NCBI GenBank assembly: GCA_050250855.1
Contig: JBFWNW010000002.1
Location: 1-64,000 of the forward strand
Direction: 5' to 3'
Length of the DNA stretch: 64,000 nt
Origin: Candidatus Babeliales bacterium
GTDB lineage: Bacteria; Babelota; Babeliae; Babelales; JACPOV01
Shown: positions 968 to 61,315 of the stretch, piece after piece
Layout of the letters: each line of letters starts with the position of its first letter
How positions within the stretch are numbered: position 1 is the first letter of the stretch
The notes under the pieces: generated by a model
The model's input: only the letters and a program-made list of their open reading frames with translations
Told to the model about the DNA's origin: nothing
The model's database searches: none
Position numbers and translations under genes: made by a program

Positions 968-1660
968 ATGTTCTTTTATAGAAAAGATACCTTAGAACAT
1001 GCAAATGATGCCAGTTCATCTCTTAAAATATTTATAATGACATCTCTTTTTATCATTCTTGCTTTTCTCGGGGCAACAGTCCTCACCTTACTGCCAAAGA
1101 TATATTTCTACTCCTTTACCTATGCAAAAATATACTTAGATAAAAGAGTAAATTCCCCCCAGCTCATAGTAAAAGTTTATAGTGACTTTACAGAATTATT
1201 TTTAGCAATAAATATTTTTCTTCTTGTTCTTGGCTTTTTATTTTGTTTTTCTATATCAAAAAGCTCTGTTAAAGATTTTTTAAAAAAAATAATACCTATA
1301 ACTTGGCGAATTCATACTAAAATTATTATTGTTTCAGGATTACTTCTTACTTTATGTATTGCTTTTTTTACGTTATATTTTAGTTATAAATTTCTTTTGC
1401 TTCAAAAAGAATCTGCGCCAAAAGCACCTCTTCCCTTTCTTCCTTTTAAACTCCTATCTAAGCTAACGGGAACTTATCCTAGCTTCAAAAATTTATGGAA
1501 CCAAATACATGCACTTCCAAAAGCACAAAAGATATTTAATCAAATAAATAAAGTAAGCCTCTACACCTATTGGGGGTGCCAAATAGGAAGCAGTTTATCA
1601 ACTTTATGGTTGGTATTAAATGTACAAGAAAAATTAAGAATTATGCAGAAAAAGATATAA
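968..1660 (+). CDS. Hypothetical membrane protein (3-4 hydrophobic segments)
   Basis: 230-aa ORF, AAGGA RBS, several long hydrophobic stretches, no recognised motif. Confidence 0.65.
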   Translation: MFFYRKDTLEHANDASSSLKIFIMTSLFIILAFLGATVLTLLPKIYFYSFTYAKIYLDKRVNSPQLIVKVYSDFTELFLAINIFLLVLGFLFCFSISKSSVKDFLKKIIPITWRIHTKIIIVSGLLLTLCIAFFTLYFSYKFLLLQKESAPKAPLPFLPFKLLSKLTGTYPSFKNLWNQIHALPKAQKIFNQINKVSLYTYWGCQIGSSLSTLWLVLNVQEKLRIMQKKI

Positions 1661-2153
1661 AAGTATTGATAATTTGTTGTGCATGGCGCTCAACATCAAC
1701 ATCATCAAGAATTCCAACTAAAATGCCATGCTCATCTATAAGGAATGTGCGCCTTTTAGGGAAAAAACCTAGCGACCACCATATATATGTATCATAAAGT
1801 TTACTTACCTTTTTTTTAGTATCACTTAAAAGAGTAAATGGCAAAGCATGCTTTTCTTTAAATGCTTTATTTTCAGAAGGATCTGCATAGCTTATACCCA
1901 GTACAATAATATTATTTTTCTTGAATAAAGAAAAGCCCTCACGCAAGCTACATGCTTCTTTTGTGCAATAATAGCTGTCATTCTTTGGGTAAAAAACTAA
2001 AGCAACTTTATTCCCATGAAATGAACTTAGTGATCGCGTCACACCCTGCTCGTCTTTAAGCTTAAAATCTGGCGCTAAGGTCCCAATTTTTAGGGCAGCA
2101 TTCATAAATCCAATGTTAAACAAAAAAAAGAATAGTATATTAAATTTTCTCAT
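1641..2153 (-). CDS. bcp: Peroxiredoxin, BCP/PrxQ family, with N-terminal signal-like peptide
   Basis: APDFKL, FYPKNDSYYCTKEAC (PxxxSxxC), LPFTLLSD, RRTFLID. Start placed at ATG 2153, coupled to the mnmE stop (TAATG). Confidence 0.85.
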   Translation of the reverse strand: MRKFNILFFFLFNIGFMNAALKIGTLAPDFKLKDEQGVTRSLSSFHGNKVALVFYPKNDSYYCTKEACSLREGFSLFKKNNIIVLGISYADPSENKAFKEKHALPFTLLSDTKKKVSKLYDTYIWWSLGFFPKRRTFLIDEHGILVGILDDVDVERHAQQIINTFISFSA

Positions 2154-3523
2154 TATTTTCCTACGCAAAATTCTCTAAATACAGCATCCATTCCTTTTTC
2201 GGCTATACTCTTACCCGTTAGTTCTGTAAGACTCTCAAGAGCATCCTTCAAATGACATGACAATAATTCATATTCTATAGCTCCCTTGAGCATATTCTTT
2301 ATTTCAAGCAATGTACATTCTAACGAAAGCAAAAGATTAAAGTGACGTTTATTGAGTAAAAAAGGAGATGCAATAGAAGTAAATAGATCATTTATTTTGG
2401 TTTGAATAGCGGAATGTACGTTTTCTAGATTTTCATGTGTTTGGCTAGAACATCCAATTTCATCAAGGTAATTAAGCTGAGTTTTTTTAGGCAAATCTAC
2501 CTTGTGTGCAATAGTAATAATCTTATGAGCATATTGCGCATGCAACATGTCATACAGTTCACGTTCTTGTTGAATCATTACACGTGAACGATCATAGATC
2601 AGAAGTACAATATCTGCCTTCTGAGCTTCTTGCATAGAACGAGCAATGCCTTCTTTTTCTATAATATCATCAGTTTGCCTTAACCCAGCAGTATCAACAA
2701 GCGTCCAATAGTTGCCATTATTATACATACCAGCTTCAATAACGTCTCGCGTTGTTCCTGCAATATCGGTGACAATAGCTCTTTTTTGGTTGATCAATGC
2801 ATTAAACAAAGAAGATTTTCCTGCATTAACAGAACCTATTAATGCTATTCTAACTCCCTGCCTAATGTGTTGTTGCTGATCAAATGTTTTTTTTATAGTT
2901 TGGATATTAGAAATAAGACGATCAATTTCTTGAGAAATCTGGCTTCCAAATTCCATATTCTCTTCTTCAATAAACTCAAAGCTTGCCTCTGAAAAAGCTA
3001 AACATTTTACTAAAGTTTTTTCGATATCAGTAATCCAATGAGAAAAGCTTCCTTCTAGTTGAGCAAGCGATTGACGCAATGCCATCTGGTTTGAAGCATG
3101 AATAAGCTCATTAATTGCTTCTGCCTGAATCAAATCAATTTTACCATTCAAAAAGGCGCGCTTGGCAAATTCTCCTTGTTGGGCTAATCGAGCTCCACAT
3201 AGAATAGAAAGTTCAATAATTTTTTCAATAATAAAAGGATTATTATGGCACGTTATTTCAACAGTATTAAGCCCTGTAAAAGTATGTGGCTCATGCATAA
3301 CAAAAAACATGACTCTATCTACTAATTCATTTTTTTCTACTATAGAACCATAATGAATAGTATGCGTTGGCACATCAAGAAGCGCTTTACCTGAAGGTAA
3401 TACCGCGTACTGACTTACAATTTCTAGAGCATTAACCCCGGAAATTCTGATAAGAGCTAAAGCGCCACTTCCTTTTGGGGTACATTGCGCAACTATTGCT
3501 TGAGAATCTCGATCTAAAATCAT
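2153..3523 (-). CDS. mnmE: tRNA modification GTPase MnmE/TrmE
   Basis: GSVNAGKSSL, GTTRD, DTAG, AFLNGKIDL, C-terminal FCVGK. Confidence 0.97.
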   Translation of the reverse strand: MILDRDSQAIVAQCTPKGSGALALIRISGVNALEIVSQYAVLPSGKALLDVPTHTIHYGSIVEKNELVDRVMFFVMHEPHTFTGLNTVEITCHNNPFIIEKIIELSILCGARLAQQGEFAKRAFLNGKIDLIQAEAINELIHASNQMALRQSLAQLEGSFSHWITDIEKTLVKCLAFSEASFEFIEEENMEFGSQISQEIDRLISNIQTIKKTFDQQQHIRQGVRIALIGSVNAGKSSLFNALINQKRAIVTDIAGTTRDVIEAGMYNNGNYWTLVDTAGLRQTDDIIEKEGIARSMQEAQKADIVLLIYDRSRVMIQQERELYDMLHAQYAHKIITIAHKVDLPKKTQLNYLDEIGCSSQTHENLENVHSAIQTKINDLFTSIASPFLLNKRHFNLLLSLECTLLEIKNMLKGAIEYELLSCHLKDALESLTELTGKSIAEKGMDAVFREFCVGK

Positions 3524-50541: not shown

Positions 50542-51483
50542 ATGAAAAAAATATCAATTGTTTTGCCTATTTACAACGAAGAAAAAAATATTCCTATTGT
50601 TTACCATGAACTGTTGAGCGTTTTAACGCCACTCAAAGAATTTGCTTATGAAATTATTCTTGTTAATGATGGCAGCAGAGATGCTTCATGGCAAACTATT
50701 CTGAATTTAGCAAAAGGTGATTCTTGTATTAAAGCCCTTACTTTTAGTAGAAATTTTGGGCATCAAATTGCGCTAACTGCCGGTTATGATCATGCAACAG
50801 GTGATGTTATTGTTAGCATGGATGCAGATCTGCAGGATCCTCCTTCTTTAATTCCTTCTATGCTTGAAGCATGGCACAAAGGAGCAGATATTGTCTATGC
50901 GCGCCGCGCTGACCGTAAGGATAATTTTTTAAAGCGCATGACCGCCATACTATATTATAAATGTTTATCCCATATTTCTGACGTTACTATTCCGCGCAAT
51001 GTTGGCGATTTTAGGTTAATTGATAAAAAAGTTCTTACCTATTTAAAACAGTGTCGCGAAAAATCTCGCTATTTACGCGGCATGGTTGCATGGTCTGGCT
51101 TTAATCATGCCTTTGTAGATTTCAACAGACCAAATAGACTAGAAGGAACCACTGGTTATACCTGGTCAAAAATGATCAAGCTTGCTTTTGATGGCGTAAC
51201 AGGATTTTCTTTATTTCCTTTAAAGCTTGCAGCATTTATTGGCGTTTTTGTTATTCTTACCGGCTGTTTAATGTTTACCTATATTTCTTGCGATGCTCTT
51301 TTTAATAAAGTAAATTATCCTCTTTTTAAATGGCTTGTTACTATTGTTTATATTTTTATGGGCGTTCAATTTTTGCTTATGTGGCTTATTGGTGAATATA
51401 TTGGTAGAATTTTTGAACAACAAAAAGGACGGCCTTTATATATTGTTGATAAAAAAGTTAACTTTCAGGAGAGTAGCCCGTGA
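50542..51483 (+). CDS. GtrB-like undecaprenyl-phosphate glycosyltransferase (GT2), copy 1
   Basis: ISIVLPIYNE, NDGSRD, SRNFG, MDADLQDPP, GDFRL, two C-terminal TMs, IGEYIGRI, RPLYIV. Confidence 0.92.
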   Translation: MKKISIVLPIYNEEKNIPIVYHELLSVLTPLKEFAYEIILVNDGSRDASWQTILNLAKGDSCIKALTFSRNFGHQIALTAGYDHATGDVIVSMDADLQDPPSLIPSMLEAWHKGADIVYARRADRKDNFLKRMTAILYYKCLSHISDVTIPRNVGDFRLIDKKVLTYLKQCREKSRYLRGMVAWSGFNHAFVDFNRPNRLEGTTGYTWSKMIKLAFDGVTGFSLFPLKLAAFIGVFVILTGCLMFTYISCDALFNKVNYPLFKWLVTIVYIFMGVQFLLMWLIGEYIGRIFEQQKGRPLYIVDKKVNFQESSP

Positions 51484-52181
51484 TTGAAAAAGAGTTTGAT
51501 AACTATATAGATAACTATCGCAATAATTGTAATAATGCTTTATGGCTTTCCGGTGAATCAAGCGATTATTTTGCTTTATACAAAGCACAAAAGTTGCAAA
51601 CTTGGTTTTCTAATCAGACACAAAAAAAAATAAAAATTTTAGATTTTGGTTGTGGTGATGGCATCATGACGCAGCATGTACAATCATTATTTCCTCATGC
51701 TACCGTTTATGGCGTTGATCCTTCACCAAAAAGCGTCCAAGATGCGCAAACCAAGTTTCCTTCTATAAAATTTTCAGTTAATAGCGACTCCAATACCAAG
51801 CTTGATTTTGAATCTAATAGCTTTGACCTTATTTTCACCGCAGGAACCTTGCACCATATACCGTTTTCTATGCATGCTGGGTATATGCAAGAACTTATGA
51901 GGATAGTAAAAGCTGGAGGTAGCATCGTTATTTTTGAACTTAATCCTCTTAATCCGCTCACCGTGTATACTTTTAAAACTAATCCTATTGATTATAATGC
52001 AAAAATGCTCACACCATGGTATGCCTATAATTTGGCAAAAAAATATTCTAAGCCTTCTATAAAATTTATCTGTTTTTTCCCTAAATTTTTAAAATTTTTA
52101 CGCCCATTAGAAGCATTATTTTCTAAAATTCCTGCCGGGGCACTCTATTCAATTATTATACCCAAAAAAGGAGCGGACTAA
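51480..52181 (+). CDS. Class I SAM-dependent methyltransferase
   Basis: ILDFGCGDG, GVDPS, FDLI, LHHIP, ELNPLNPLT; coupled to both neighbours. Confidence 0.9.
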   Translation: MIEKEFDNYIDNYRNNCNNALWLSGESSDYFALYKAQKLQTWFSNQTQKKIKILDFGCGDGIMTQHVQSLFPHATVYGVDPSPKSVQDAQTKFPSIKFSVNSDSNTKLDFESNSFDLIFTAGTLHHIPFSMHAGYMQELMRIVKAGGSIVIFELNPLNPLTVYTFKTNPIDYNAKMLTPWYAYNLAKKYSKPSIKFICFFPKFLKFLRPLEALFSKIPAGALYSIIIPKKGAD

Positions 52182-53344
52182 TGTTCATGCATAATGGTAG
52201 ATATCCTGATCTTGTAAAAGTTTTACGTGGATTTCAAGAAACAGGGGTTCCTCTTGTAATGCATAATGGCTCACACCCAATTCCTTACTTGACTGATGGT
52301 GCCGATGATATTGGAATATATCTTTTTATTCCTAAAATTGCTAAAATGCTCAATCTTTCACTTGATCAAGCATTAAATCTTTTTTTTTATGGCATAATTT
52401 TTGGATCAGCTTTATTAGGAATTCTAGGCTTTTGTTTACTTTATAAATCAACTAAAGCTAGAATAATAGCCTTTTTTGGCATAGCAATTTCCCTGTTTTT
52501 ACCTATAAAAATTAATGATGTTTATGCCATTGGTTCTTGTCTTTCCATTGCTATAGTGCCATTTTATTTATACTTAATAAAAGAAAAAAAACCTTCTAAT
52601 ATTATTTATATATTTCTTTTTTGTTCTGGCATAGCCATAGGACTTGCAAACAATTTAAGATCGTACTCTGGGATTGGCGTACTTCTTTTTCTACTCACAT
52701 TATTATTTACACATATTATTTCTATAAAACAAAAAATAATACTTTGTTTATTTATTTTTTCTGGTATAGCATTGCCAAACTTGTATATTACAAAACTGGT
52801 TAATAAATACACAATTTATGCAAATACCCAGTTTAAAGAAAATGTATGCTTAAATAGGCATCACCCTTTTTGGCATAATTTTTATATAGGATTTGGCTTT
52901 ATCAATTGCTTAAATAGACCTGGCATACAGTGGGATGATGGATATGCCTACAATAAAGCCAAGGAGATAGACCCATCACTAGATTTAAATGACGCCAATA
53001 AAATAGATTCTATCCTTAAAGGAGAAGTTTTTAAGTTACTACTTAATGATTCTTTCTTTGTTTTTTCTTGCTTATTTGCAAAAATAGGCGTACTTATTTT
53101 TCTTCTATTAAAATATGCTAATATTTTTTTCATAGGATCAGTTTTTTCCTTATTTTCAATAGAAAAATGGAAATTAAAACTAGCATTTATAGTTCTTATT
53201 ATTTTTAATTCATTATATCCTTTAGTAGCAATACCATTTCCAGAATATTCCATTGGATTAATAACAGCAGCAATACTTTACGGTATTCTTATTATCAATT
53301 CCTATTCAAAGGAACAAAAAAATTATAGTTATTTTTATGATTAA
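52181..53344 (+). CDS. Polytopic membrane protein, putative GT-C-like transferase, paralog 1
   Basis: DDIGIY, RSYSG, HHPFWHNFYIGFGF, WDD, FAKIG, EYSIG; multiple TMs; next to GtrB. Confidence 0.7.
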   Translation: MFMHNGRYPDLVKVLRGFQETGVPLVMHNGSHPIPYLTDGADDIGIYLFIPKIAKMLNLSLDQALNLFFYGIIFGSALLGILGFCLLYKSTKARIIAFFGIAISLFLPIKINDVYAIGSCLSIAIVPFYLYLIKEKKPSNIIYIFLFCSGIAIGLANNLRSYSGIGVLLFLLTLLFTHIISIKQKIILCLFIFSGIALPNLYITKLVNKYTIYANTQFKENVCLNRHHPFWHNFYIGFGFINCLNRPGIQWDDGYAYNKAKEIDPSLDLNDANKIDSILKGEVFKLLLNDSFFVFSCLFAKIGVLIFLLLKYANIFFIGSVFSLFSIEKWKLKLAFIVLIIFNSLYPLVAIPFPEYSIGLITAAILYGILIINSYSKEQKNYSYFYD

Positions 53345-54365
53345 AAAAAAGATATCAATTATTATTCCCATTTTAAATGAAGAAAAAAATCTTCCTTTGC
53401 TTTGGCAAGAGCTTCAAAAAATATTTATTGCTCAAGAACATACTTATTCATTTGAATTAATCTTGGTTAATGATGGCAGCAAAGATTCTTCTTGGCAGTT
53501 AATACAAAAAATTTCAATGAACTATCAATGTATTGCTATCAATTTTAGTAGAAATTTTGGTTACCAAGCAGCACTAACTGCCGGCTATGACCATTGCTCT
53601 AGTGATGCTGTTATTACTATGGATGCAGATTTGCAACATCCGCCAGCACTTATAGAGAAAATGCTTGAGCACTGGCAACAGGGTTCAAAAATTGTCTATG
53701 CACGCCGCTTAGAGCGCCATGATAGTTTTTTAAAAAAAATAACAGCACAAGCATATCACAAAATCCTTGATCTGGTTGCTGAGGTAAAAATCCCTCGTGG
53801 TATTTCTGATTTTCGTCTTTTGGATAAACAAGTTGTTCATGAAATAAAAAAATATCATGAAAAAGCTCGCTACTTAAGGGGCATTGTTGCTTGGACTGGT
53901 TTTAACTGCTCATATGTTGATTTTGAGCAACCATCACGCAAGCATGACGAAACAAGATATACCTGGTCAAAGCTTTTTAAAATTGCTTTTGACGGCATAA
54001 TAGGTTCTTCTATTCTCCCTTTAAAACTTGCAGCATATTTTGGCAGTTTTGTTATTGCAACTGGCTGTATTATGCTTGGCATTATTACCGTAGATGCACT
54101 ATTTTTTAAAGGAAATTATCCTCTTTTTAAATGGCTGGTAACTATAATTTATATTTTTTTAGGTTTTTTATTTATTTTGTTATGGTTACTAGGGGAATAT
54201 ATCGGACGCATGTATGAAGAACTTAAAGGCAGGCCTTTATATATTGTGCAAGATCTTGTAAAGACACCTAAAAAAGGAATAAGTCATGAATCTTATGAGT
54301 TGCCGGCTCATTCACTTGAAGCAAACATTTCAGGGTCTTTTAAAAACGGGAATACCCCTTATTGA
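53337..54365 (+). CDS. GtrB-like undecaprenyl-phosphate glycosyltransferase (GT2), copy 2
   Basis: NDGSKD, SRNFG, MDADLQHPP, SDFRL, LGEYIGRM, RPLYIV. Confidence 0.92.
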   Translation: MIKKKISIIIPILNEEKNLPLLWQELQKIFIAQEHTYSFELILVNDGSKDSSWQLIQKISMNYQCIAINFSRNFGYQAALTAGYDHCSSDAVITMDADLQHPPALIEKMLEHWQQGSKIVYARRLERHDSFLKKITAQAYHKILDLVAEVKIPRGISDFRLLDKQVVHEIKKYHEKARYLRGIVAWTGFNCSYVDFEQPSRKHDETRYTWSKLFKIAFDGIIGSSILPLKLAAYFGSFVIATGCIMLGIITVDALFFKGNYPLFKWLVTIIYIFLGFLFILLWLLGEYIGRMYEELKGRPLYIVQDLVKTPKKGISHESYELPAHSLEANISGSFKNGNTPY

Positions 54366-55461
54366 ATATGACGGTACTAAGCTTTTGCCAACATTTACGT
54401 CTGATGATATCGGCATTTATATTATTATTCCCAAGCTTTCTTATTGGTTTAACATTTCTATAGAACAAGCAAGCCATCTATTTTTTTATGGCATCTTATT
54501 GCTGCCATGCCTTATTGGTGTCCTTGGTTTTTTATATTATTATCAAAAAATATCTACAAAAATTATCAGCTCATTTGCTCTTATTCTTTTAATGCGCCAA
54601 GCATATAGTGTTGGTGATGTGTATTTAAGTTATTATGCCTGCGTTACCGCGCTCGTTCCTTGGTCTTTTTATTTTTCAACAAAACAATATTCAAAAAAAA
54701 CTTTATTATTTATGTTTTTAGCGGGATTGGGTATAAGCTTTTTCCATTATATAAGAGCTTATTCTGGATTAGGCGTTCTTTTTTTTATGATAGCCCTTTT
54801 TGTGCTACAGCAAAACTATACGAAAAAAGAGTTACTCTTTTCCGTTCTTGCTTTTGTAGCGGGGATATATGTTCCTGTAAGATATTTTTCATATAATTAT
54901 CATCAATCAGTTGCCTATGCACAAGAACATTTAAAAGATGTTGATATTGGTGAAAATAAACATGTATTCTGGCATAGTATTTATATTGGCTTTGGGTTTT
55001 TACAGGAAAAAAATCCTGATAATATCAAATATGATGATTCTATAGGAATAAAAAAAGTACAAAGTATCAATCCTTCTATAAAATCAATCAATATTGAATA
55101 TGAAAAAACTCTAAAACATGAAGTTATCAACTTAATAAAAAATCACTGGGAATTTTTTATTTTTACTATATTTGCAAAAATTGGAGTTCTTTTTTGGTAT
55201 CTTATACTTTTTGCTAATATAGGTCTTATTGCCGCACTATTTTATAGAAAACCGCTCTATTTAGAATATTCATTTTTTTTAGCCTTCATTGTTTATAGCA
55301 TATTTCCTATTTTAGCTATCCCAATAAAAGAATATTCTTTAGGTTTTATTTCACTAGCTGCTCTTTATGGCGTTATCAGTATTAATTATGCAATAGAGTA
55401 TACAAGTTTTTCTTTATCTTCGTTATTTTGTTCTATAAGCAAAAAAGCAAAGACTTCTTAA
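54286..55461 (+). CDS. Polytopic membrane protein, putative GT-C-like transferase, paralog 2
   Basis: DDIGIY, RAYSG, HVFWHSIYIGFGF, YDD, FAKIG, EYSLG; AAGGA RBS. Confidence 0.7.
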   Translation: MNLMSCRLIHLKQTFQGLLKTGIPLIEYDGTKLLPTFTSDDIGIYIIIPKLSYWFNISIEQASHLFFYGILLLPCLIGVLGFLYYYQKISTKIISSFALILLMRQAYSVGDVYLSYYACVTALVPWSFYFSTKQYSKKTLLFMFLAGLGISFFHYIRAYSGLGVLFFMIALFVLQQNYTKKELLFSVLAFVAGIYVPVRYFSYNYHQSVAYAQEHLKDVDIGENKHVFWHSIYIGFGFLQEKNPDNIKYDDSIGIKKVQSINPSIKSINIEYEKTLKHEVINLIKNHWEFFIFTIFAKIGVLFWYLILFANIGLIAALFYRKPLYLEYSFFLAFIVYSIFPILAIPIKEYSLGFISLAALYGVISINYAIEYTSFSLSSLFCSISKKAKTS

Positions 55462-56580
55462 ATGAATATAATGCCTTGCCGTCTCTCTCATTTACAGCAT
55501 TGTTTTATTGGTTATCAAAAAACTGGAATACCTTTAGTTGAATGGTATAAAGAACAGCTCAGTTCATTTACTGCAGCAGATGATCTTGGCATTTATATTC
55601 TCATGCCTAAATTAGCATCTTTTTTGCATATAAATGTTCTACAAGCAACACAGCTTTTTATGTATGCTGCTTTTTTTAGTGCATATTTAATAAGTATTAT
55701 AGGCTTTTTTTTCTACTACAAATCAGCTATGCAACGGATAATAAGTTTTATTGGTATTACTGCTCTTATACTTTTTTCATTAAAAATAGGTGACCTTTAT
55801 ATTTTTTATGTACTTCCTACGATAGCATTTTTGCCTTGGAGCCTTTATTTTTATAAAAAACAATCAACCTCATGGCATGCATTGATCTTTTATTGCATAG
55901 TAGGTTTTTTGTGCGCCTGGGGCCATTATATTCGGGGATACTCTTCTCTTGGCATTTTAATTTTTGTAGGCATTCTTATACTCACAAAAAAAACTACTGC
56001 TACCAGTAAGCTACTATCTTTATTATTTCTGTTTTTAGGGCTTTCTATCCCTGCACTTCAGATGCACTATTATCGTCACCAGTACACACAGTTTCTAACA
56101 CAAAACAATATAGCTGATCCTGCGGCTGGCATTAAAAATCATCTTATATGGCATGCAGTTTATGCAGGACTTGGTTTTTTATCATTCAAAAACCCTGACA
56201 ATATTAGATGGGGCGATTGCTATGCAACCCAAAAGGCACAAGAAATTTTACCTGGCGTTGCTTATAATACGGTTGAATATGAAGCGGTTTTGAAGAATGA
56301 AGTTATACGGCTTACCAAGGAACATCCTTCATTTATGATAATGACTCTATTTGCTAAAGTAGGAATCTTATTATTGTATTTACTGATTTTTGCTAATATT
56401 GGCCTTATTGCTGCATTTTTTTACCCCAAAGCGTGGCCTCTTGAACTTGCTTTTTGGAGCGCCCTTGCTGCAAGTAGTATTTTTCCTCTACTCGTTTTAC
56501 CAACAACAGAATACTCGCTTGGCTTTATCGCTTTTGCTATACTTTATGGAGTAGTCAGTTTAAACAAGGAGATAATATGA
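55462..56580 (+). CDS. Polytopic membrane protein, putative GT-C-like transferase, paralog 3
   Basis: DDLGIY, RGYSS, HLIWHAVYAGLGF, WGD, FAKVG, EYSLG. Confidence 0.7.
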   Translation: MNIMPCRLSHLQHCFIGYQKTGIPLVEWYKEQLSSFTAADDLGIYILMPKLASFLHINVLQATQLFMYAAFFSAYLISIIGFFFYYKSAMQRIISFIGITALILFSLKIGDLYIFYVLPTIAFLPWSLYFYKKQSTSWHALIFYCIVGFLCAWGHYIRGYSSLGILIFVGILILTKKTTATSKLLSLLFLFLGLSIPALQMHYYRHQYTQFLTQNNIADPAAGIKNHLIWHAVYAGLGFLSFKNPDNIRWGDCYATQKAQEILPGVAYNTVEYEAVLKNEVIRLTKEHPSFMIMTLFAKVGILLLYLLIFANIGLIAAFFYPKAWPLELAFWSALAASSIFPLLVLPTTEYSLGFIAFAILYGVVSLNKEII

Positions 56581-56960
56581 TTAAAAAACAAGCTCTTGTA
56601 GCTTTATCCTTTCTTTGTTCAAGTCTATATGCAAGCAACTATGTTGTTGAAGTAACAGATAAAAACTTTGAAGAAGTTGTCCTAAAAGCTGAAAAACCGG
56701 TCATTATAGATTTCTGGGCACCATGGTGCGGCCCCTGCAAAAATTATAAACCAAAATTTCATACCTTGGCTGAAAAATATCACACAGAATATACCTTTGT
56801 CTCTGTAGATGTAGATCAAGCACAACAAGTAGCATCAAGATATAAAATTATGTCTATTCCAACAGTTCTTGTTATAAAAAATGGTCACATAAAAGCTACC
56901 TTTGTTGGCGGACTTAAAGAAATATCATTCAAAGAAGCTGTAGATCAGGCTCTTAAATAA
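56577..56960 (+). CDS. trxA: Thioredoxin with N-terminal signal peptide
   Basis: IDFWAPWCGPCK, MSIPT; leader MIKKQALVALSFLCSSLYA. Confidence 0.9.
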   Translation: MIKKQALVALSFLCSSLYASNYVVEVTDKNFEEVVLKAEKPVIIDFWAPWCGPCKNYKPKFHTLAEKYHTEYTFVSVDVDQAQQVASRYKIMSIPTVLVIKNGHIKATFVGGLKEISFKEAVDQALK

Positions 56961-56972
56961 TATTACATAGAA

Positions 56973-57000
56973 AAGGCCCTTTTGCAGGGCCTTATTTTTT
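56973..57000 (+). terminator. Intrinsic terminator after thioredoxin
   Basis: AAGGCCCT-TTTGC-AGGGCCTT followed by ATTTTTT. Confidence 0.7.
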
Positions 57001-57066
57001 ATTCCCCCTCAATTTTATTGCAGTTAATAATTTTTTATTGATATCCTTTCGATAAAGGGGATAAAT

Positions 57067-58503
57067 ATGAACAATAAAAATATAAAAATTATTGCTTTTG
57101 CAGGGCTTTTTATCTTATGTGCGGGAATCTATACTTATTTTTCATATTTTAATACTAAACCTACACTCGAAAAAGCACTTAACCATAAAGATTTAGTTCC
57201 TGTCTTAATTGTTGGCTCAGGACCAGCGGGCCTGAGTGCTGCTCTTTATACTTCACGAGCAAAACTCCCTACTATTGTTCTTACCGGCGACCATCCTGGC
57301 GGAACCCTTGCTGATGTACGCGAAATTGAAAATTGGCCAGGAAAAAGAAAAGCTTCTGGAGAAAATGCCATTAACGATTTAAAAGCGCAGGCAACCAAAT
57401 TTGGCACACAAATTCTTAACGATAAAGTCTTATCTATAAATCTTTCTTCATGGCCTTTTGTAGTAAAAACGCGTGATGGAAGAACCTTTAATGTCATGTC
57501 TTTAATTTTGGCAACTGGTCGTATTGCAAAAAAACTTAATGTTCCGGGCGTTGAAGAATATTGGGGCCATGGTGTTGGTGTATGTACTATTTGTGATGCA
57601 CCATTTCATAAGGGGCATAATGTTGCCGTTGTTGGTGGTGGTGATACCGCCGCTGACCGTGCTCTACAACTTGCTGCCTTTGCCAAAAAAGTATACATGC
57701 TTGTAAAAGACAGTGAGCTTGATGCATCAGGATTTGTACAAGATTACGTAAAAAAGAATGATAAAATAGAAGTTTTATATAATACAGAGTTACAAGAGGT
57801 AACTGGAGAAGGGGACTCGGTAACTGGCGCAAAAATTTTTAATACCAAAACAAAGCAGGCAAGCGATATTGCTATACAAGGAATTTATTTTGCTATTGGC
57901 TGGCATCCCAATTCTGATTTAGTACAAAAACAAGTAAAACTTCAAGAAGGAGATTTTATTTGGCTTGATGGCCAAACACAAAAAACTTCTATTTCTGGTT
58001 TTTTTGCAGCAGGCGACGTTGCAGATTCTTTATATGGCAAAGCAGGCGTTGCAACAGGAAGTGGTGTAAAAGCTGGCATGGATGCTATAAAATTCATGCA
58101 ACGTCTAGGATTTGAACCAGGAACTGCTGAAAAATATAAAGATAAATTGGCAAAGCCTGAAGCAGAAAAAAGTATGGAACTACAAAATATCAACAACTTA
58201 GCACAATTAAAAAACTTAGTAAGTAATGAAACAAAACCTATTGTGGTTGATTTTTATACTGATTACTGCCCAACATGTAAAGCATTAATGCCTAATTTAA
58301 AAATGCTTGCTGCGCAATTTAAAGATCAAGTCCTCTTTATAAAAGCTAACTTTGACGAAGCGCAAAGCATTGTACAATTTTACAATATACCATCCGTTCC
58401 CTATCTTGCTCTCTTTAAAAATGGTGAACTTGTTAAGAAAACTAAAAAAATAGGCAGCAAGCAAGATATTGAAGCATTAGTACGTGAGCTTTTAGAAAAG
58501 TGA
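57067..58503 (+). CDS. trxB: Thioredoxin reductase with N-terminal membrane anchor and fused C-terminal thioredoxin domain
   Basis: GSGPAGLSAA, ILATG, CTICD, GGGDTA, FAAGDV; C-terminal VDFYTDYCPTC and PSVP; N-terminal IIAFAGLFILCAGIYTYF. Confidence 0.88.
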   Translation: MNNKNIKIIAFAGLFILCAGIYTYFSYFNTKPTLEKALNHKDLVPVLIVGSGPAGLSAALYTSRAKLPTIVLTGDHPGGTLADVREIENWPGKRKASGENAINDLKAQATKFGTQILNDKVLSINLSSWPFVVKTRDGRTFNVMSLILATGRIAKKLNVPGVEEYWGHGVGVCTICDAPFHKGHNVAVVGGGDTAADRALQLAAFAKKVYMLVKDSELDASGFVQDYVKKNDKIEVLYNTELQEVTGEGDSVTGAKIFNTKTKQASDIAIQGIYFAIGWHPNSDLVQKQVKLQEGDFIWLDGQTQKTSISGFFAAGDVADSLYGKAGVATGSGVKAGMDAIKFMQRLGFEPGTAEKYKDKLAKPEAEKSMELQNINNLAQLKNLVSNETKPIVVDFYTDYCPTCKALMPNLKMLAAQFKDQVLFIKANFDEAQSIVQFYNIPSVPYLALFKNGELVKKTKKIGSKQDIEALVRELLEK

Positions 58504-58640
58504 AGCGCTCAACGGCTTAAAAGCCGTTGTCTCGCGCGGAGTTCTTCGAAGCCAACCCTACTACGCTAAAGCTACGAAGGGTTCTACTTGCCATTCATCC
58601 CCATCCTTAAAAAGCCTTGGGGTTTTCTGGCAAAGTAGAA
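58501..58640. repeat. GC-rich composite hairpin element between convergent genes
   Basis: Hairpins CAACGGCTT-AA-AAGCCGTTG (58510-29), AACCCT..CGCTAAAGCTACG..AGGGTT (58554-83), TTCTACTTGCCA..CCCCA..TGGGG..TGGCAAAGTAGAA (58582-640). Confidence 0.65.
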
Positions 58641-60309: not shown

Positions 60310-60825
60310 ATGAATAAACAATGGTTATTCTTATTATTTTTTAGCATAAGTGGCATGGAAAAACCCCTAGTTACTTCTTCAAGCAAAAATGGCAATAACC
60401 TGAATGGTTGTTTTATAAAAATAACAAATAAAAATGAAGAATTTTTTGAAGCCCATTTTTCAAGTAATTATTTTTTAAATAATGAACATCTTTGGCTTAA
60501 CCGAGAAAAACCTTCTCATCCCGATGAATATCATAGATTAACATCCATATATCATTGCGTTCCCTTAGAACTTTCTTCTCAACAAATAACAAAATGGTTT
60601 GAAAGTTATGTTGAATTTATTGGCTACCAATTTACTACTGATCAAACATTAGAACCCTACTCTTTAATACAAAAAACAAAGCATTTACTTTCTCTTGCCA
60701 AGCTACATATTGCTCAACTACAACAAGCAAAAAAGAATCCACTTTATGACAAAAAATACACTATTAATAAAAGTGATCTTGAAAAAATAGAAGATAAAAT
60801 TATTGAATTTGAAACAAGTTGGTAA
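60310..60825 (+). CDS. Hypothetical exported protein
   Basis: Short signal-like peptide MNKQWLFLLFFSISG followed by MEKP. Confidence 0.7.
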   Translation: MNKQWLFLLFFSISGMEKPLVTSSSKNGNNLNGCFIKITNKNEEFFEAHFSSNYFLNNEHLWLNREKPSHPDEYHRLTSIYHCVPLELSSQQITKWFESYVEFIGYQFTTDQTLEPYSLIQKTKHLLSLAKLHIAQLQQAKKNPLYDKKYTINKSDLEKIEDKIIEFETSW

Positions 60826-60856
60826 AAAGTTGTATAGTAAGAGTAGGAGAAAAAAG

Positions 60857-61315
60857 ATGAACCTACTCACTAAAATAATAGTAGCTATTATCCTCAGTGT
60901 TACCGTCGAATTAATAGCAGCACAAGAAGCTCAACAAAAACTTGCTACATTCCTAAAAACAGATGCAAATTACAAAAAAGCAAAAACTAAAATAAAACAT
61001 TTGCTAGAAAAAGGTGCAAAATTAGATGTATCTATAGATAACCCCTTATTAATTGCTATAGAAGCTGATAGCCCTATCATGATTTTAGCTCTTCATAAAA
61101 ATGGAACTCATCTAAAAATACCTTATAATCACCAAGAAATGGAAGCACACCGCCTAGCAGACTTATTGGGAAAATCAGAAGAAACAAAGCTTCTTGTTCA
61201 CAACCTTATGCTCATTAATATATTCAAAAATAAAGCATTATCAAAAACACAAGAAAATCTCTATTTTGAGACCCTAAAAGCAATCAACAAAGTAAAAGAA
61301 ATAGGTTTGCCCTAG
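60857..61315 (+). CDS. Hypothetical exported protein with ankyrin-like segment
   Basis: Signal-like N-terminus; IKHLLEKGAKLD...NPLLIAIE. Start moved to ATG 60857 (AGGAG RBS). Confidence 0.65.
   Translation: MNLLTKIIVAIILSVTVELIAAQEAQQKLATFLKTDANYKKAKTKIKHLLEKGAKLDVSIDNPLLIAIEADSPIMILALHKNGTHLKIPYNHQEMEAHRLADLLGKSEETKLLVHNLMLINIFKNKALSKTQENLYFETLKAINKVKEIGLP

Follow-up and report, generated by a model that had tools for sequence, protein, structure and literature searches.

Whether a thioredoxin reductase (TrxR) can be tethered to the cytoplasmic membrane so as to face out of the cell, and from which donor it would then draw its electrons, is the question raised by a locus in the genome of a Candidatus Babeliales bacterium. 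The locus lies in the first 64,000 nucleotides of contig JBFWNW010000002.1 (assembly GCA_050250855.1, forward strand), a stretch hereafter called the window, and comprises a gene for an exported thioredoxin (Trx) with a WCGPC active site, followed by a gene for a protein in which a hydrophobic N-terminus, a TrxR and a further Trx domain are fused. In its textbook role TrxR is a cytoplasmic NADPH enzyme (NADPH, reduced nicotinamide adenine dinucleotide phosphate), and reduction in the bacterial envelope is thought to depend on DsbD/CcdA. An earlier note on this DNA had proposed here a DsbD-independent reducing system outside the cytoplasm, with NADH or another donor in place of NADPH. The literature that we searched contained no account of a TrxR or TrxR-Trx that is tethered, membrane-bound, periplasmic or secreted, and the search on Dependentiae and thioredoxin returned nothing describing such an enzyme. 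Four points are new here: a derived clade of these fusions has remodelled its cofactor site and conserves it without signs of decay; NAD kinase and twin-arginine translocation (Tat) were found nowhere in the sampled phylum; the soluble TrxB is arginine-free at the corresponding site; and lipoprotein-type signals are broadly spread.

Both open reading frames (ORFs) were confirmed, at 56577-56960 and 57067-58503, and so was the layout that the earlier note had read in the second, i.e. a hydrophobic N-terminus, a TrxR part with a CTIC redox centre and a C-terminal Trx domain with CPTC (Table 1). PF07992 matches residues 46-333 of the fusion and PF00085 residues 380-473 (E 2.4e-20). Since the reading frame has no ATG, GTG or TTG from codon 2 up to the GSGPAG motif, which binds flavin adenine dinucleotide (FAD), the hydrophobic N-terminus is part of the protein. 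In an alignment of 53 sequences, there is no variation at G50, G52, P53, G55, C173, C176, G190, G192, C401 and C404, and conservation is 90% or more at G191, D193 and A195; the threonine at position 174, within CTIC, is specific to the clade. The AlphaFold2 model computed from this alignment (pLDDT 92, pTM 0.85) has a helix at residues 3-28 and its first Rossmann strand at residue 43. A Foldseek search with the model retrieved low-molecular-weight TrxRs at E about 1e-35 with TM-scores of 0.91-0.94 normalised by target, the best superpositions including 5mh4 (titled as the FR conformation), 4up3 and the 1f6m TrxR-Trx complex. In AhpF a double thioredoxin-like domain stands at the N-terminus, ahead of the TrxR-like part; the fusion is not an AhpF, as its Trx domain is C-terminal and its TIGR03140 score is 206 bits against a cut-off of 502.9.

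The architecture turned out to be widespread in one phylum. About 70 homologues of roughly 480 amino acids (aa) share it, and those with names are from Candidatus Dependentiae/Babeliales. All 151 sampled Dependentiae genomes have a TrxR match, and in most of them one or more fused forms of about 490 aa are encoded, so that the fusion is phylum-wide. We built a maximum-likelihood tree of 142 TrxR cores, comprising 95 tethered forms, 30 soluble TrxB proteins of Dependentiae and 17 outgroup rows. The 95 tethered rows occupy their own side of a branch with support 99, and on the opposite side lie the 30 soluble Dependentiae TrxB (support 100) together with the outgroups. Among the tethered forms, the window type and short forms lacking the Trx domain make up a clade with support 100. 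Judged by these comparisons, the fusion is a member of a phylum-wide, Dependentiae-specific family of tethered TrxR-Trx proteins that resemble NTRC. Two proteins with signal-peptide-like N-termini, CGPC and HRR, P0073 and P0074, had been considered as NADPH forms that are exported, but the tree places them on long branches among the outgroups, and they were excluded from the later family counts. Another genome, G122, encodes a 333-aa TrxR homologue with CAVC and a short signal of the cleavable type, in tandem with a tethered TrxR-Trx (L026:460-1461, minus strand).

NTRC of plastids and cyanobacteria, whose job is the reduction of peroxiredoxin, is the nearest known design, a single polypeptide in which a low-molecular-weight TrxR precedes a C-terminal Trx. 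The TrxR of Chlamydomonas NTRC (PDB 7p9d/7p9e) is matched accordingly, 7p9d at E 3.3e-64 with both domains of the fusion aligned. However, NTRC, a soluble protein, carries WCGPC together with the arginines of VRGxxMRAS, whereas the window fusion is anchored and has YCPTC and VKDSELD; in addition, it belongs to a separate tethered clade of Dependentiae (in a tree built without NTRC sequences). By analogy, the fusion would work like NTRC, its TrxR reducing its own Trx domain, yet by the defining features it is not an NTRC. With TrxB (TIGR01292; E. coli 1tde/1f6m, yeast Trr1 3d8x) it shares the fold, the GxGxxG for FAD, the CxxC in the NAD domain and GxGxxA. It differs from TrxB in its anchor and fused Trx, in having CTIC instead of CATC or CAVC, in the lack of HRRxxxR, and in a TIGR01292 score of 305.5 bits, under the curated equivalog cut-off of 343.45.

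The redox proteins encoded elsewhere in the genome change how the fusion is read. The genome is that of a member of the Dependentiae (1.22 Mb, 95% complete) and was searched for a second trxB and for dsbD; both were found. Three TrxR-like genes are present, i.e. the window fusion, a second tethered TrxR-Trx fusion with CAIC and CPSC on contig C1, and a soluble TrxB of 307 aa with CAVC on contig C3 (116623-117546), which scores 371.1 bits against TIGR01292, over the cut-off, though without the arginine motif. DsbD, also on contig C3 (L004:949-2706), has 585 aa and matches DsbD_TM with 156.5 bits; it consists of a signal peptide, an alpha-like N-terminal domain without a cysteine pair, a membrane domain with two cysteines and a thioredoxin-like domain with CSLC. 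DsbD_TM is found in 134 of the 151 genomes. A soluble WCGPC TrxA without a signal is encoded as well, and with DsbD, soluble TrxA and soluble TrxB all present, the classical route to the exported Trx exists. The DsbD independence proposed in the earlier note is therefore not supported. Like that pathway, the fusion may supply reducing power to exported thiol proteins, and the genome has DsbD alongside exported thioredoxins, among them a double-Trx protein with a signal peptide; unlike the window protein, which is a flavoenzyme, DsbD relies on thiol exchange to move electrons from cytoplasmic Trx through the membrane. On the oxidising side, a VKOR homologue was located (contig C1:464267-464632), and neither DsbB nor DsbA (PF01323) was found in this genome. 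The source of quinone for VKOR is puzzling, as a 2015 comparison of TM6 reports the lack of an electron transport chain (PMC4776705).

On which side of the membrane the flavoenzyme lies was addressed through the N-termini of the family. N-terminal charges were counted in 98 rows, four of which are locus rows that duplicate protein rows, and which still include P0073 and P0074; P0006, P0014, P0045 and P0072 were left out as truncated or lacking an N-terminal extension, and L025 and L034 since the FAD-motif pattern missed both. As a control, we used 30 class B penicillin-binding proteins (PBPs) from Dependentiae, whose N-in/C-out orientation is known. The tails ahead of the hydrophobic segment carry on average about 2 K/R and 0.15 D/E in the tethered rows, similar to those of the PBPs (2.53 K/R and 0.30 D/E), and the net charge is higher on the N-side in 57/98 tethered rows and in 19/30 PBPs. 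Furthermore, a strict lipobox rule is passed by 15 of 111 unique N-termini and by none of the 30 PBPs, four or five more N-termini being near misses. In five genomes of taxonomic family f12, a hydrophobic run of 14 residues ends in LVGC or LIGC and is followed by a polar linker; the run is too short for a membrane span, and thus is read as a lipoprotein signal. Canonical lipoboxes occur in taxonomic families f2, f5, f6, f10 and f12, and transmembrane anchors in f1, f3, f7 and f8; LspA is present in the window genome. Such swapping of lipobox and helix among families would be as expected for proteins tethered at the outer face. The TrxR part of the tethered forms has about one non-catalytic cysteine, against 2.27 in the soluble TrxB of the phylum. 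The lipoprotein signals of the relatives and the PBP-like tails favour an outward-facing family, as does the soluble TrxA/TrxB pair, which is complete and already serves the cytoplasm. Overall, we consider it somewhat more probable than not that the tethered family faces outward, and we extend this orientation to the window protein by homology.

Several observations weigh against an outward position. No N-terminus of the derived clade to which the window protein belongs passes the lipobox rule. K/R within 5 residues behind the hydrophobic core number 1.27-1.35 per sequence, against 0.47 in the PBPs, and the paralogue on contig C1 has KTKKTK behind its anchor. TatC was found neither in the window genome nor in any of the 151 genomes of the phylum at the cut-off (control search, 11/14), so translocation of an outward-facing enzyme would have to proceed through Sec in the unfolded state, with FAD acquired outside. 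NAD(P)H is not known to occur in a periplasm, where the conserved dinucleotide motif would need it. In two genomes of genus g29, G040 and G066 (L116, L117), DsbD is present, and no TrxR was matched besides the tethered fusion. DsbD normally needs a cytoplasmic reductase, and what reduces the cytoplasmic thioredoxin of these two genomes is puzzling if their TrxR-Trx faces outward. Finally, in four f12 genomes (G045, G060, G116 and G149; L110-L112, L114), a CcdA-like gene of 360-377 aa lies divergently beside the fusion with the lipoprotein signal, a neighbour that fits a cytoplasm-facing donor to CcdA equally well.

These observations count in favour of a rival reading, in which the tether holds a TrxR-Trx of the NADH type at the inner membrane face, from where it would feed DsbD/CcdA and through it the peroxiredoxin and Trx that are exported. 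Both FAD and NAD(P)H would then be at hand in the cytoplasm and no Tat pathway would be needed, the wide distribution of DsbD in the phylum would provide the partner, and the NADPH arginines kept in the sister group (see below) count for it as well. Nevertheless, we regard an inner-face location as the less likely reading, though it deserves a full hearing. It would require the translocation of positive, acid-free N-tails, and the lipoprotein signals with their hydrophobic runs of 13-14 residues, found in at least five taxonomic families and in none of the PBPs, cannot anchor a cytoplasmic domain. Likewise, the TrxR homologue of G122 with its cleavable-type signal and the presence of soluble TrxA and TrxB speak against it. 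Of the location outside the cytoplasm claimed by the earlier note, then, plausibility is what has been gained, through the canonical lipoprotein signals of the relatives; the basic clusters behind the anchor and the missing Tat pathway still stand against it.

The second part of the question is the electron donor. In TrxB, the arginines of HRRxxxR form the site for the 2'-phosphate of NADPH. Yeast Trr1 (3d8x) was the reference for motifs at residue level; HMMER aligned the window protein (...GGGDTAADRALQ...YMLVKDSELDAS) with it (...GGGDSACEEAQF...FMLVRKDHLRAS), placing MLVKDSELDAS opposite MLVRKDHLRAS. Since VKDSELD aligns to yeast VRKDHLR, the arginines are replaced in the window protein, as the earlier note had seen, with D215 and D219 standing where arginines would bind the phosphate. 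Far from being a one-off, this replacement is a conserved trait of the clade. Among 33 window-type rows, counted by eye in the motif table, the last arginine position holds R or K in none and D in 22, the second basic position holds D, E or N in 27, and the first still has K or R in 31. In contrast, 98% of 57 rows of sister forms have R at the last position. The derived clade of 30 rows that holds the window protein shows V[KR][DEN]xxL[D/T]A, whereas LVRxxxMRA persists in the basal members of the window-type clade and throughout the sister grade.

The change does not look like the erosion of an unused site. The mean pairwise identity in the derived clade is 0.557 for the NAD domain and 0.580 for the FAD domain; the corresponding values for the NADPH-type sister group, 0.534 and 0.561, give the same ratio. 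As the NAD domain of the derived clade shows no relaxed conservation, the change at the cofactor site is best described as a switch, i.e. remodelling under selection rather than decay, as far as the aligned sequences tell. There are 14 further conserved substitutions specific to the clade, including E197D, E198R, R227Y, R324G and Q325K, and the arginine gains E198R (80%) and A152R (63%) are likewise clade-specific. The loss of the motif is not special to the tethered fusion, however, since the soluble TrxB has [HQ]-I-x-D-x-L-T instead of HRRxxxR in 30/30 orthologues (L050-L079), with GGGDTAMEDA kept. Moreover, a search for NAD kinase (PF01513) was negative in all 151 Dependentiae genomes and positive in 14/14 well-known control genomes. 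By the motifs, the odd ones out are rather the tethered sister forms that still carry the NADPH arginines. The absence of NAD kinase means that NADP(H) must be acquired. We infer that the donor of the window fusion is a dinucleotide other than NADPH, most likely NADH. A parallel is the TrxR of Thermoplasma acidophilum (PDB 3cty, matched at E 1.9e-38), for which PMC6262447 gives NADH dependence and the lack of HRRxxxR; that enzyme differs in being soluble and archaeal and in having no fused Trx.

The fusion might still be an NADPH enzyme in which the motif has moved and the specificity has stayed the same, the 2'-phosphate site being rebuilt from K214 with R198 or R152. With R198 newly conserved and K214 retained, binding of the phosphate and hence use of NADPH are conceivable, which counts against the switch to NADH; the basic residue that most of the clade has kept at the first position, the clade-specific gains at 198 and 152, and the presence of G6PD in the window genome point the same way. 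With acidic D215 and D219 at the positions of the phosphate-binding arginines and NAD kinase undetected throughout the sampled phylum, we nevertheless find continued NADPH specificity improbable. We hold it to be very unlikely that the fusion is independent of pyridine nucleotides and takes its electrons from ferredoxin, flavodoxin or some other protein in the manner of FFTR/DTR enzymes. Such enzymes exist, HRRxxxR is absent from them as it is from the fusion, and MjTR of M. jannaschii uses F420 (PMC10880999, PMC6262447). By the criterion of PMC10880999, however, FFTRs lack GxGxxA as well as HRRxxxR, whereas the window protein retains GxGxxA, and its NAD domain is normally constrained. Moreover, its best matches among solved structures are NADPH TrxRs, with FFTR/DTR-type chains far lower.

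For the window protein we thus return to an outward-facing enzyme of the NADH type, for which the following mechanism is proposed. The uncleaved signal-anchor would hold the protein at the cytoplasmic membrane, with the flavoenzyme and the fused CPTC thioredoxin on the outer (periplasmic) face. Electrons would be drawn from a pyridine dinucleotide distinct from NADPH, with NADH supplied by the host as the likeliest, and would pass from FAD to CTIC, on to the CPTC of the fused Trx and from there to exported thiol proteins. Candidate clients are the WCGPC thioredoxin encoded next to it and the peroxiredoxin of the BCP type, which is also exported. The fusion would work beside DsbD and would not replace it. 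Orientation, donor and clients are each put forward here on indirect grounds, and as a whole, an outward-anchored NADH-type TrxR-Trx fusion that reduces exported thiol proteins beside DsbD is offered as a tentative proposal, somewhat short of an even chance. Two observations at the locus count against the pairing with the neighbouring thioredoxin: an exported Trx adjoins the fusion in 2 of 30 loci, i.e. in the window genome and in G002, and a terminator-like hairpin parts the two genes. For the phylum, it is possible, although we are more doubtful, that the Dependentiae maintain a thioredoxin system on the outer face for which host pyridine nucleotides pay, with tethered fusions of both NADPH and NADH type reducing exported thioredoxins and peroxiredoxin; these fusions might run in parallel to DsbD, or even feed DsbD/CcdA in reverse. 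As to an outward thiol oxidase with reverse flow, from client dithiols through CPTC, CTIC and FAD to O2 or quinone, on the models of the TrxR-fold dithiol oxidases GliT and DepH and of the Trx-flavin fusion QSOX, we credit it least of all, because VKOR is already there for oxidation, GGGDTA and the NAD domain, needless in an oxidase, are conserved as in the NADPH-type sisters, and those sisters keep the NADPH arginines, even though CPxC differs from the cytoplasmic CGPC, neither DsbA nor DsbB was found in the genome and the family bears export signals.

The candidate clients are both encoded in the window. The exported thioredoxin matches PF00085 at E 2.9e-30 and passes TIGR01068 (109.7 bits, cut-off 96.8), and its N-terminal extension of 19 residues has two lysines, a 13-residue hydrophobic run and an end of small residues, which bears out the signal peptide predicted in the earlier note. 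Read by eye, the trx sequence has no in-frame ATG, GTG or TTG downstream that would remove the extension. G002 has an orthologue with a similar signal-like N-terminus, and G149 a lipoprotein Trx with WCSAC next to its fusion. The protein of G002, which stands beside the fusion there (L007:3038-3841, minus strand), has 267 aa and weak C-terminal ankyrin repeats; Ank_3 and Ank are over the Pfam cut-offs and Ank_2 is below, matches that hint at a possible action on host proteins. The peroxiredoxin is of the BCP/PrxQ-like type, and is a candidate client of an envelope thioredoxin system. PF00578 has one match over the cut-off in the whole genome, and as this only AhpC/TSA peroxiredoxin bears a signal-peptide-like N-terminus, the peroxide defence provided by the family would be extracytoplasmic.

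The seven genes from 50542 to 56960, trx included, overlap or abut, and encode in this order a GT2 protein, a methyltransferase, a polytopic membrane protein, a second GT2 protein with C-terminal membrane segments, two paralogous membrane proteins and the exported Trx. The three membrane proteins are paralogous and polytopic, of about 380 aa each, and have no Pfam family above threshold. The upstream module looks like a lipid-carrier glycosylation system of the outer face. The trx start overlaps the stop of the preceding gene by 4 nt (ATGA) and has AAGGAG 8 nt upstream of its ATG; trx is very probably co-transcribed with the glycosylation module as its last gene, a point on which the earlier note is upheld. 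A role of the exported Trx as an OST3/OST6 subunit was considered and rejected: OST3_OST6 scores 34.8 bits, but the fused Trx domain and the G002 Trx match it too, and hence the hit is read as one to the generic thioredoxin fold.

Between trx and the fusion gene, 13 bases past trx, stands a hairpin (56973-56993) with a stem of 8 bp and 5 G-C pairs, followed by a T-run. The region has four terminator-like sites, where shuffled sequences have 2.1 +/- 1.6, and this one is the strongest. The fusion gene starts 64 bases past this feature and has its own purine-rich ribosome site. Because of this strong terminator-like hairpin in between, trx and the fusion gene are probably separate transcription units. 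Five sequencing runs were listed for 56400-58600, all of them DNA metagenomes, of which two are possibly the source, and none was of RNA. In other genomes, proteins of about 410-460 aa with signal peptides often lie divergently beside the sister-type genes; in none of the four tested was a Pfam family found. Further along the window, at 60310-61315 on the plus strand, two short ORFs of 171 and 170 aa lie between glyA and efp; their N-termini are hydrophobic, and neither has a Pfam family.

Table 1. Positions in the window of the fusion gene, its motifs and the associated features
Feature	Position	Strand	Remarks
Membrane-tethered TrxR-Trx fusion, 478 aa (tether predicted)	57067..58503	+	Profiles, HMMER alignments, model
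N-terminal hydrophobic anchor, residues 8-28, after short tail with K4 and K7	57088..57150	+	
FAD-binding GSGPAG, residues 50-55	57214..57231	+	
Redox-active CTIC, residues 173-176	57583..57594	+	
Dinucleotide-binding GGGDTA, residues 190-195	57634..57651	+	Retained
VKDSELD, residues 213-219, in place of HRRxxxR	57703..57723	+	Aligned to yeast Trr1
C-terminal thioredoxin domain, YCPTC	58204..58485	+	CPTC residues 401-404 = 58267-58278
Exported thioredoxin, 127 aa, WCGPC	56577..56960	+	Final gene of upstream operon
Predicted Sec signal peptide of thioredoxin, residues 1-19	56577..56633	+	Read from sequence
Intrinsic-terminator-like hairpin and T-run	56973..57003	+	Between trx and fusion gene
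Six overlapping or abutting genes ahead of trx	50542..56580	+	ORF map, profile matches
BCP-type (BCP/PrxQ-like) AhpC/TSA peroxiredoxin	1641..2168	-	PF00578; signal-peptide-like N-terminus

Even if the tethered fusions face inward, they present, together with the arginine-free soluble TrxB, a clean natural case of a change in cofactor specificity tied to the loss of NADP synthesis, a case that rests on the conserved K/R-D/E/N...D remodelling and on the 30/30 count in the soluble enzyme. If they face outward, a TrxR-Trx family behind Sec and lipoprotein signals would challenge both the view of TrxR as a cytoplasmic NADPH enzyme and the dependence of envelope reduction on DsbD/CcdA. It would also mean a new route by which an intracellular parasite turns the reducing power of its host to the defence of its own envelope, in bacteria that have neither NAD kinase nor Tat. 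Should both the outward orientation and the use of host nucleotides prove right, the family would point to something more unusual than a variant of TrxR.

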